Shown here one piece after another: positions 10,887 to 10,989 of a DNA stretch of 54,587 nucleotides. A program made the position numbers and the translations under genes. The notes under the pieces are model-generated. The model was given only the letters and a program-made list of their open reading frames with translations, did no database searches and had not been told where the DNA came from. Position 1 is the stretch's first letter. The number at the start of each line of letters is the position of its first letter. Source of the DNA: a virus; UHGV virus genome UHGV-0036483. One strand, written 5' to 3'.

Positions 10887-10896
10887 ATGAACAAAA

Positions 10897-10912
10897 TGTG
10901 ATCTGTATCACA
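10897..10912. promoter_or_regulatory. perfect palindrome TGTGATCTGTATCACA (TGTGA-N6-TCACA), followed by a 9-bp-stem hairpin at 10922-10949
   Basis: Read directly in the 100-bp intergenic region. Confidence 0.35.
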
Positions 10913-10989
10913 ATGTATACGAAATGGCATTTCTCCGGCGATGCCATTTTGTTATATATAAGCCACAGAAAGACAGATGGGACAAAATC

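Follow-up and report, generated by a model that had tools for sequence, protein, structure and literature searches.

The 103-bp gap between two small open reading frames (ORFs) at 10887-10989 of the virus genome UHGV-0036483 is, by comparison across related phages, a conserved ~75-bp portable cassette that marks the junction of exchangeable accessory-gene blocks. The genome, 54,587 nt long, was analyzed in full and is called the window below. It is the complete genome of an mEpimmI-type coliphage, kin of mEp021, mEp010, mEp554 and related prophages. We suggest, at a probability of roughly 0.55, that the gap holds a portable terminator-promoter cassette with a palindrome of the type recognized by CRP (the cyclic AMP receptor protein), located in the distal early-right operon between Q and the late promoter and lysis genes. 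The suggestion is built on the anatomy of the gap, its non-randomness, its portability, the strand-asymmetric fold of its RNA and the genome-wide phasing of palindromes with promoters. As an operon-boundary cassette the gap is real and fairly ordinary; CRP binding is likely, and regulation by CRP is something that we only infer. Feature coordinates are collected in Table 1.

A Portable Cassette Between Unrelated Genes

A pattern search of IMG/VR found the cassette in 34 contigs; with other loci these provide 38 copies, representing 27 distinct sequences. The cassette is present once per genome, always 4.7-6.5 kb downstream of the nutR2 site, and one contig has a second, diverged copy. Similarity starts abruptly at AAA(T/C)GTGATC, a few bases past the point where the upstream gene stops, and at least 10 unrelated genes occupy that upstream place; the matches to E. 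coli prophages break at ~10890 of the window. On the other side, the cassette ends 25-35 nt before a start codon that has a ribosome-binding site of its own, and the genes found there are of at least four kinds. The products of these genes begin MKSNKF.., MNANAKYPAW.., MKRWINK.. and MKREYV.., and none has a known function. The alleles of the palindrome, the -10 variants and the cargo genes assort independently of one another. Four of seven related phage records and 12 of 5,426 complete E. coli genomes carry the cassette, and in these two sets it was not found outside this phage group.

In the window, the gap is truly intergenic. The upstream small ORF has its stop codon at 10884-10886, and the downstream gene begins at ATG 10990, the same start as in its mEp021 homologue. 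Pfam and PHROGs searches with the flanking and cargo proteins returned only families of unknown function and no functional hint, and Rfam covariance models, applied at gathering score to the whole window, gave no match. The earlier note, made from the letters alone, had placed an internal operon boundary here. A mosaic junction, a terminator-like hairpin annotated in three relatives and an overlapping promoter-like scaffold all speak for such a boundary.

Two further observations concern the junction in relatives. The contig with two copies, IMG/VR contig L067, has them at 4610-4676 and 5652-5685; the diverged one carries the decayed palindrome CTTGATCTTCCACACA and a compensatory C-G. In mEp021 (locus L003, 1830-1860) and mEp010 (locus L001, 2730-2756), a G+C-rich hairpin, GGGGCCAAATGGCCCC or GGGGCCGGATGGCCCC, lies directly upstream of the MKSDKF gene. 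It occurs where the cassette is absent or further upstream, and may be an alternative junction element.

The Hairpin

A hairpin with a 9-bp stem had been singled out in the gap. The sequence in question, AAATGGCAT-N10-ATGCCATTT, is indeed present at 10922-10949, but it is no separate feature: the arms of the hairpin are two inverted copies of a 14-bp promoter box with the consensus GTATACAAAATGGC.

Folding of the region gives -18.7 kcal/mol (z = -4.2) for the plus-strand RNA vs -11.5 kcal/mol for the minus-strand RNA, a difference that arises because of G-U pairs. In the relatives, the core GGCAUUGU-UUCG-GCAGUGCC folds at -10.0 kcal/mol into a stem of 8 bp and a loop of 4 nt; a complementary A-tract precedes it, and (A/G)UUUUGUUAU comes after it, with 7 U in the next 10 positions. 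Judged by its predicted fold, the hairpin of the relatives is of canonical intrinsic-terminator shape, and the homologous hairpin is annotated as a Rho-independent terminator (an ARNold prediction) in mEp010, mEp554 and mEp044. Across the 27 distinct sequences, the stem is 95% paired and the loop bases vary (UUCG, UCAG, UACG, UUUG, UCCG and UUAG), and every stem polymorphism is a transition that preserves pairing via G-U. In the diverged second copy, a compensatory change converts a U-A pair of the stem to C-G. The window has the only copy with GGCATTTCTCCGGCGATGCC; five changes are unique to it, and three of the four affected pairs are kept. The strand-asymmetric fold, the G-U-only stem variation and the one compensatory change together indicate selection on RNA pairing. 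On balance, the hairpin probably terminates transcription.

The Promoter Box and the Promoter Scaffold

The box is a genuine repeated motif of this phage. No 9-mer of the window is more frequent than CCATTTTGT, which has 12 copies; some of these lie in plain translation-start or coding contexts (18803, 22722, 38422 and 52030), which the intergenic copies do not. The exact sequence GCCATTTTGT occurs six times, at 10943, 26232, 29271, 30805, 5834 (minus strand) and 18803 (minus strand). With at most one mismatch there are 19 matches vs 7.0 expected, and no shuffle reached 19. In the gap, GCCATTTTGTTATATATA runs from 10943, after the hairpin sequence given above. A resemblance to blocks at 26227 and 29266 had been remarked on before; both coordinates are correct, both blocks carry the shared 16-mer GTGAAGCCATTTTGTA, and the motif family is real.

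The box adjoins the -35 at three promoters, namely pR and the minus-strand promoters at 29.2 and 26.2 kb; an inverted box supplies the -10 at the apparent pL and at the promoter near the first palindrome (site 1); and at three promoters the -35 is flanked on both sides by inverted boxes. The reference member of this family is the promoter taken as pR, the strongest one of the immunity region. Within the A-rich box, ACAAAATGG agrees with the proximal UP-element consensus at 7 of 9 positions.

Read for its motifs, the hairpin DNA of the cassette is at the same time a promoter scaffold, in which the top of the hairpin holds the -35 and its 3′ arm the -10. An extended -10 TG is present at 10950-10951 (-15/-14), and the predicted start is ~10965. 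The relatives have box-A-TTGTTT-17-TATATA or TATAAA, in the same register as pR (TTGACT-17-TATATT). That register is also the one seen at pL, site 1, 26.2 kb and 29.2 kb. Whether the hexamers suffice for activity is finely balanced, and we put an active cassette promoter slightly on the doubtful side.

The CRP-Type Palindrome

The CRP consensus core is TGTGA-N6-TCACA, with the extended form AAATGTGATCTAGATCACATTT. The gap had been said to contain a second perfect CRP-consensus inverted repeat, and it does: TGTGATCTGTATCACA, at 10897-10912, agrees with 10 of 10 core positions and in addition with the flanking T and A (TGTGAT....ATCACA), agreement here and below being judged against this consensus. 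Exact matches to TGTGA-N6-TCACA number two in the window, at 5851 and 10897. Dinucleotide-preserving shuffles lead one to expect 0.06, and none of 100 shuffles reached two, which confirms the earlier opinion that two perfect copies are unlikely by chance. Only the near-perfect copies are unusual, as palindromes with up to two mismatches number 21 vs 23 expected. Both perfect palindromes stand in the same register, 39.5 bp from their centre to CCATTTTGT and 17 nt from the -35. They are not independent events; the surrounding promoter scaffolds look paralogous.

Among the 38 copies of the cassette, the left half of the palindrome, (T/C)GTGATC, is nearly invariant. The right half reads ATCAC(A/G) in ~21 of 38, with a free centre that takes six different versions. 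A GATC lies within most of the palindromes (at 10900-10903 in the present one); genome-wide depletion of GATC was looked for and is not seen, with 243 observed vs 209 expected. Comparison by eye with the consensuses for LexA, DnaA, IHF, TyrR, MarA and LacI gave no convincing match, and such comparisons are leads only.

The palindrome is centered at 10904.5, 17 nt (edge to edge) upstream of the putative -35 and at ~-60.5 from the predicted start. At lac P1, the gap between the CRP core and the -35 is 17 nt, and CRP is centered at -61.5. Class I sites lie near -61.5, -71.5, -82.5 or -92.5, and the palindrome, placed relative to the predicted start, falls at such a position. Because the site is a perfect consensus, established knowledge of CRP leads us to expect that CRP-cAMP very probably occupies it in E. 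coli. That binding there also activates transcription is a tentative proposal, somewhat less likely than not. Action of cAMP-CRP on coliphage promoters has a precedent in phage T1 (PMC6737242).

Palindrome-Promoter Pairs Elsewhere in the Genome

Near-perfect palindromes accompany other promoters of the window, at similar distances. The gap from palindrome to -35 is 17 nt at site 1, at the 10897 palindrome and at 26.2 kb, 18 nt at pL, 19 nt at 30.9 kb and 27 nt (17+10) at 29.2 kb. The starts predicted for these promoters are ~5918 (site 1), ~51930 (pL) and, on the minus strand, 30831, 29235 and 26196. Relative to predicted starts, the sister sites are centered at -59.5, -60.5, -62.5, -70.5 and -72.5. 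Under strict promoter criteria, the window has 58 called sites. Eight palindromes have at most one mismatch, and four of them, those of the apparent pL and of the site-1 promoter included, stand at gaps of 17-19 or 27-29 nt from a strictly called -35, whereas the null rate of such gaps is 0.64% for all positions and 1.1% for intergenic ones. The resulting p of about 1e-7 to 9e-7 is strong but partly post hoc, as the distance windows were set around textbook class I positions after the first cases had been seen. Looser promoter criteria give the same phasing picture, and the promoter scan independently calls the pR, pL, site-1 and 30.9 kb promoters.

The 26.2 and 29.2 kb minus-strand promoters head moron islands in the tail region. 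At 30.9 kb, 12 variants retain TGTGATC...(A/G)TCAC(G/T), with the center varying between near-invariant flanks, and no terminator is present there to account for the conservation of the half-sites. At 29.2 kb, the promoter-proximal TCACA is kept.

Table 1. Features of the cassette and of related promoter regions, in window coordinates.
Feature	Position	Strand	Remarks
A-rich linker, upstream ORF stop to cassette	10887-10896	+	Similarity of relatives starts here (AAAA-T/C-GTGATC)
Perfect palindrome TGTGATCTGTATCACA	10897-10912	none	Match to CRP consensus core
Box copy 1, GTATACGAAATGGC	10915-10928	+	Hairpin 5′ arm; same box adjoins the -35 of pR and of the 26.2 and 29.2 kb minus-strand promoters
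RNA hairpin	10915-10957	+	Core GGCAUU..GAUGCC 10926-10945, U-rich tail AUUUUGUUAU 10946-10955; intrinsic-terminator-like
Putative weak sigma-70 promoter	10930-10958	+	-35 TTTCTC (10930-10935), 17-bp spacer, -10 TATATA (10953-10958)
Box copy 2, inverted (GCCATTTTGTTATA on plus strand)	10943-10956	-	Hairpin 3′ arm, spacer end and -10
Weak Shine-Dalgarno (GATGGG) and ATG 10990 of first cargo gene (99 aa)	10976-10992	+	
Site-1 hairpin, 16-bp stem, then TTTT	5841-5879	+	Apex is the first palindrome, 5851-5866; predicted TERM_4/t4 of mEp021
Site-1 promoter TTGTTA-16-TATACT	5884-5911	+	-10 within box TCCATTTTGTATAC; scan flags 9/12
Full-length cassette paralogue: AAAAGCGTGATCTTGATCTCT, box, TTCACT-17-TATAAA	26203-26264	-	nhmmer E = 0.015, model positions 2-71
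Box, then TTCACA-17-TATATA (29270-29242)	29242-29313	-	1-mismatch palindrome 29298-29313 upstream
Moron-island promoter in tail region, TTGATT-17-TATATT (30866-30838)	30838-30901	-	1-mismatch palindrome 30886-30901 upstream
Apparent pL, TTGACC-16-TAAACT (51964-51937)	51937-51998	-	-10 in box; 1-mismatch palindrome 51983-51998 upstream
pR: box GTATACAAAATGGA (52783-52796) abutting TTGACT-17-TATATT	52783-52825	+	10/12; no palindrome

Site 1 combines a predicted terminator and a probable promoter. Its stem spans 5841-5876 and folds at -24.2 kcal/mol on the plus strand vs -12.9 on the minus strand. In 27 distinct relatives, the arms are conserved and the 4-nt loop is variable, and most read CGTGA rather than TGTGA. 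Downstream of the stem, the relatives are hypervariable except for CTTGTT (the -35) and GTATCCATTTTGTATACT (box and -10). The nutR2 site follows, with boxA at 5925-5937 and boxA plus boxB at 5925-5960. That CTTGTT and the box stay conserved between hypervariable stretches suggests that the promoter is real, with its transcripts running straight into nutR2. All three nut sites would then appear to have a promoter of their own: pL for nutL, pR for nutR1 and the site-1 promoter, between t4 and nutR2, for nutR2. The published description is silent on this.

Some further observations touch the other pairs. In the segment 51983-52026, GTGACT-17-GATTAT is a possible promoter of the repressor gene; its -35 is overlapped by the pL palindrome, and its mRNA would be nearly leaderless (ATG 52024). 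The repressor gene is co-oriented with pR, unlike λ cI. Four CTTGCA repeats surround pL (51900-51995), including the perfect palindrome CTTGCAAG; they are possible operators for Rep021 or Cro. In the tail region, TTGTTA-18-TACAAT (plus strand) and TTGATT-17-TATATT (minus strand) form an overlapping divergent pair at 30811-30866, located between a minus-strand moron island and the tail gene at 30920. Over 5.4 kb of the tail region there is no other consensus promoter hit; the palindrome at 30886-30901 is within the 5′ leader of the plus-strand gene. With respect to the minus-strand promoter, the palindrome at 29298 lies at ~-70.5; with respect to GTGAAG-17-TATAAT, a promoter-like site on the plus strand, it lies at +4.5, a position from which one bound protein could activate one direction and block the other.

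Gene Order and the Late Promoter

The mEpimmI group consists of temperate coliphages that are non-lambdoid and Nus-dependent; in E. coli from the human gut, their prevalence is reported to equal that of lambdoid phages (PMC11893012). Gene order in the window was read via the mEp021 annotation and Pfam. It starts with a minus-strand left operon, pL, the repressor gene (52024-52671), pR and gp17, which encodes the N-like protein. Recombination genes and methylases follow, then the first palindrome, ninF, ninG, rusA and Q, the last being of λ type (7367-8089; PF03589). After Q come the small-ORF block, the terminator t5 (12732-12750), holin and lysozyme genes, and the structural genes. The gap lies within the small-ORF block, with Q on one side and t5 on the other.

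Just before t5 is a conserved block, TTGTAG-17-TAAAAT followed by AACAAT, that relatives keep behind three unrelated upstream contexts. The comparable element of λ pR′ is AACGAT. The block is likely the Q-dependent late promoter, as a candidate recognized by its motifs. If so, the early-right operon extends through the small-ORF block, which forms its distal, accessory end. The λ-type Q and the late-promoter-like block before t5 thus place the cassette between Q and the late promoter. Within 12676-12750, the predicted start is ~12711, the -10-like AACAAT falls at about +2 to +7, and the t5 hairpin is only ~20 nt beyond.

Two other repeats were noticed in the window. In the tail-fibre gene (1827 aa), k-mers recur with a 108-bp period (36031, 36139, 36247) over 36028-36260 and 36691-37040, which suggests tandem 36-residue repeats. 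The 12-mer CAGCAGAAAGCG occurs three times, at 14-27, 32653-32666 and 54071-54084, and the related 11-mer GCAGAAAGCGC five times, two more of its positions being 3368 and 28273 on the minus strand.

A Model for the Cassette, and Its Alternatives

From these features we infer termination, promoter activity, CRP binding and CRP activation, in the following scheme. The hairpin and AUUUUGUUAU would halt transcription that comes from the direction of Q, except where Gp17 has modified the polymerase for antitermination. A weak pR-like promoter in the same DNA would then restart transcription ~25 nt ahead of the first cargo gene. At high cAMP levels, CRP-cAMP at ~-60.5 would recruit the C-terminal domain of the RNA polymerase alpha subunit onto the A-rich box, and in this way couple accessory-gene expression to carbon status. 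The cassette may also serve as a homology patch for the exchange of gene blocks, because it is conserved and its neighbors are not.

Several results weigh against this scheme. The right half of the palindrome is degenerate, CCCGCA-like, in ~17 of 38 copies (about 45% of relatives), so CRP control is not essential to the cassette, and selection on the palindrome at 10897 appears weak. The window promoter scores 6/12 plus the TG, its -35 matching 2/6 and its TATATA being without the conserved final T, and the strict promoter scan calls neither the window version nor that of mEp010. Promoter start sites are predictions. The hairpin core of the window is the weakest of the family (-7.3 kcal/mol, with an internal mismatch), and a simple terminator scan calls the hairpin neither in the window nor in mEp010. 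Two-sided covariation was not found in the 27-sequence alignment, where power is low and the search pattern fixed many stem columns. Conservation of the palindrome at 5851 is explained by the terminator stem without CRP, and the shared position of the palindromes could have been inherited through duplication of a promoter scaffold, rather than selected. Lastly, mEp021 lacks the cassette and is viable without it.

The alternative that survives best, an unlikely one in our judgment, is that the gap is an intrinsic terminator only. Within the early-right operon it would act as an internal stop of tR type that polymerase modified by Gp17 or Q can pass, and the palindrome and hexamers would be functionless leftovers of a duplicated scaffold. 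The annotation as a terminator in three records agrees with this, as do the strand-asymmetric fold, the U-rich tail, the variable loops and the conserved stem. So do the weakness of promoter hexamers that no scan calls, the decay of the palindrome's right half, and the fact that the site-1 palindrome is just the top of a terminator stem. A terminator, however, has no need of the left half-site GTGATC, which is nearly invariant at the cassette edge. Nor does termination explain why the allele with an intact right half (allele a) retains its half-sites while the center varies, or why the cassette always ends at a set distance before a start codon with its own ribosome-binding site. The genome-wide phasing of palindromes with promoters is also hard to explain if the palindromes are inert.

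Less probable by a good margin of plausibility is the idea that the palindrome, the inverted boxes, or both are operators of a phage DNA-binding protein that co-regulates pL, the nutR2 promoter and the accessory promoters. Candidates are the MarR-like helix-turn-helix protein encoded first in the pL operon, a Cro analogue and the Rep021 repressor. The box is phage-specific, supplies the top 9-mer and is present at pR and pL as well as at the accessory promoters; phage promoters are also where the palindromes cluster; the one at pL overlaps the likely promoter of the repressor gene; and inverted boxes surround the -35 at three promoters. Yet the palindromes reproduce the exact host CRP consensus, down to the flanking T and A. 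They lie ~60 bp upstream of starts, not over the core promoters where repressor or Cro operators act, and pR itself is without one, which makes a repressor operator in particular unlikely. The box arms are 24-64 bp apart, unlike the arms of CI- or MarR-type dimer operators, and the G-U-only variation of the stem indicates RNA pairing rather than a protein-DNA dyad.

Least probable of the four is a pure recombination linker, that is, a boundary sequence kept for homologous exchange of the flanking blocks with no regulatory role. The extremely mosaic flanks on either side of a conserved ~75-bp core fit it well, and so does the independent assortment of palindrome alleles, -10 variants and cargo genes, but a homology patch alone does not predict that stem, half-site and T-tract are kept while loop and center are free, and the cassette is paralogous to bona fide promoter regions.

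Three other readings of the gap were rejected. A Q-dependent late promoter at 10887-10989 is out, given the better conserved candidate directly before t5 and the absence of the cassette from mEp021. So is a coding extension from ATG 10924, which has no Shine-Dalgarno sequence and which in other copies runs into a stop or a different frame. A nut/boxB reading of the hairpins fails as well: the boxA/boxB of nutR2 is that at 5925-5960, A-rich loops are absent from the hairpins (UCCG or UUCG in the gap), and no boxA (GCTCTTTAA-like) was found in 10887-10989.

The terminator-promoter cassette admits a bolder extension, in which about six CRP sites at class I distance serve pL, the nutR2-firing promoter (and so transcription towards Q), the accessory cassette and the minus-strand moron-island promoters. 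cAMP-CRP would then tune the lysis-lysogeny decision, delayed-early expression and moron expression, and a single 14-bp box would act as dock for the alpha C-terminal domain, as -10 and as terminator stem. We regard this extension as unlikely.

For the mEpimmI phages, the present analysis offers a testable transcription map that goes beyond the Gp17/nut system and the repressor. It comprises a one-box promoter family, a promoter before each nut site, a candidate late promoter, the portable cassette and the class I-spaced CRP-consensus sites. If CRP acts, nutrient status would have a direct input to how a common gut prophage expresses its early and accessory genes. If CRP does not act, the cassette still marks module boundaries, and it cautions against equating a perfect consensus with function.

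Comparison with Known Systems

The cassette resembles lac P1-type class I promoters in its TGTGA-N6-TCACA core placed 17 nt from the -35, in the A-rich stretch between CRP site and -35, where the alpha C-terminal domain would dock, and in its weak core promoter. Sister sites in the phage genome lie one helical turn further upstream (27-28 nt), as is also the case among class I promoters. The cassette differs from lac P1 in that its palindrome is centered at ~-60.5, since the hexamer spacer is 17 bp and not 18. In addition, its -10 lacks the final T, a terminator-like hairpin encloses its promoter, many relatives have a decayed right half-site, and its CRP dependence is putative.

With the intrinsic terminators of phages (tR2-tR4 and tR′ of λ, t1-t5 of mEp021 and the ARNold-predicted T8 of mEp010), it shares a stem-loop, a U-rich tract, a preceding A-tract and a place in an operon under antiterminators, here the N-like Gp17 and Q. 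In contrast, the base of its stem is AU-rich and built of promoter-box repeats, and the version in the window, a predicted terminator, is mismatched and weak.

Lambdoid phages carry morons, and conserved boundary sequences at module junctions, a concept associated with Hendrix and Juhala. The cassette is akin to such moron junctions, as a short terminator and promoter element at which unrelated small accessory genes swap in syntenic genomes. It departs from them in that one cassette is reused before at least four cargo genes, in a non-lambdoid family, and in that its place is not the late operon but the stretch from Q to the late promoter.

In phage T1, cAMP-CRP represses the pir, dam and recE promoters, linking their expression to carbon status (PMC6737242). 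The likeness is that host CRP acts directly on several promoters of a coliphage, an action that is predicted here; the difference is that in T1 CRP represses, at sites not defined as class I (PMC6737242), whereas the geometry of the cassette predicts activation.

Taken together, the cassette resembles a class I CRP promoter of lac type joined to an intrinsic terminator, at a junction of modules like those of morons. Each ingredient of the cassette is of a known kind, and its hairpin is already annotated as a predicted terminator in relatives. What appears to be new is that the cassette is recognized as a portable unit; new as well are a promoter family based on the box, the promoter in front of nutR2 and, in a phage family described only recently, the phased CRP-consensus palindromes.

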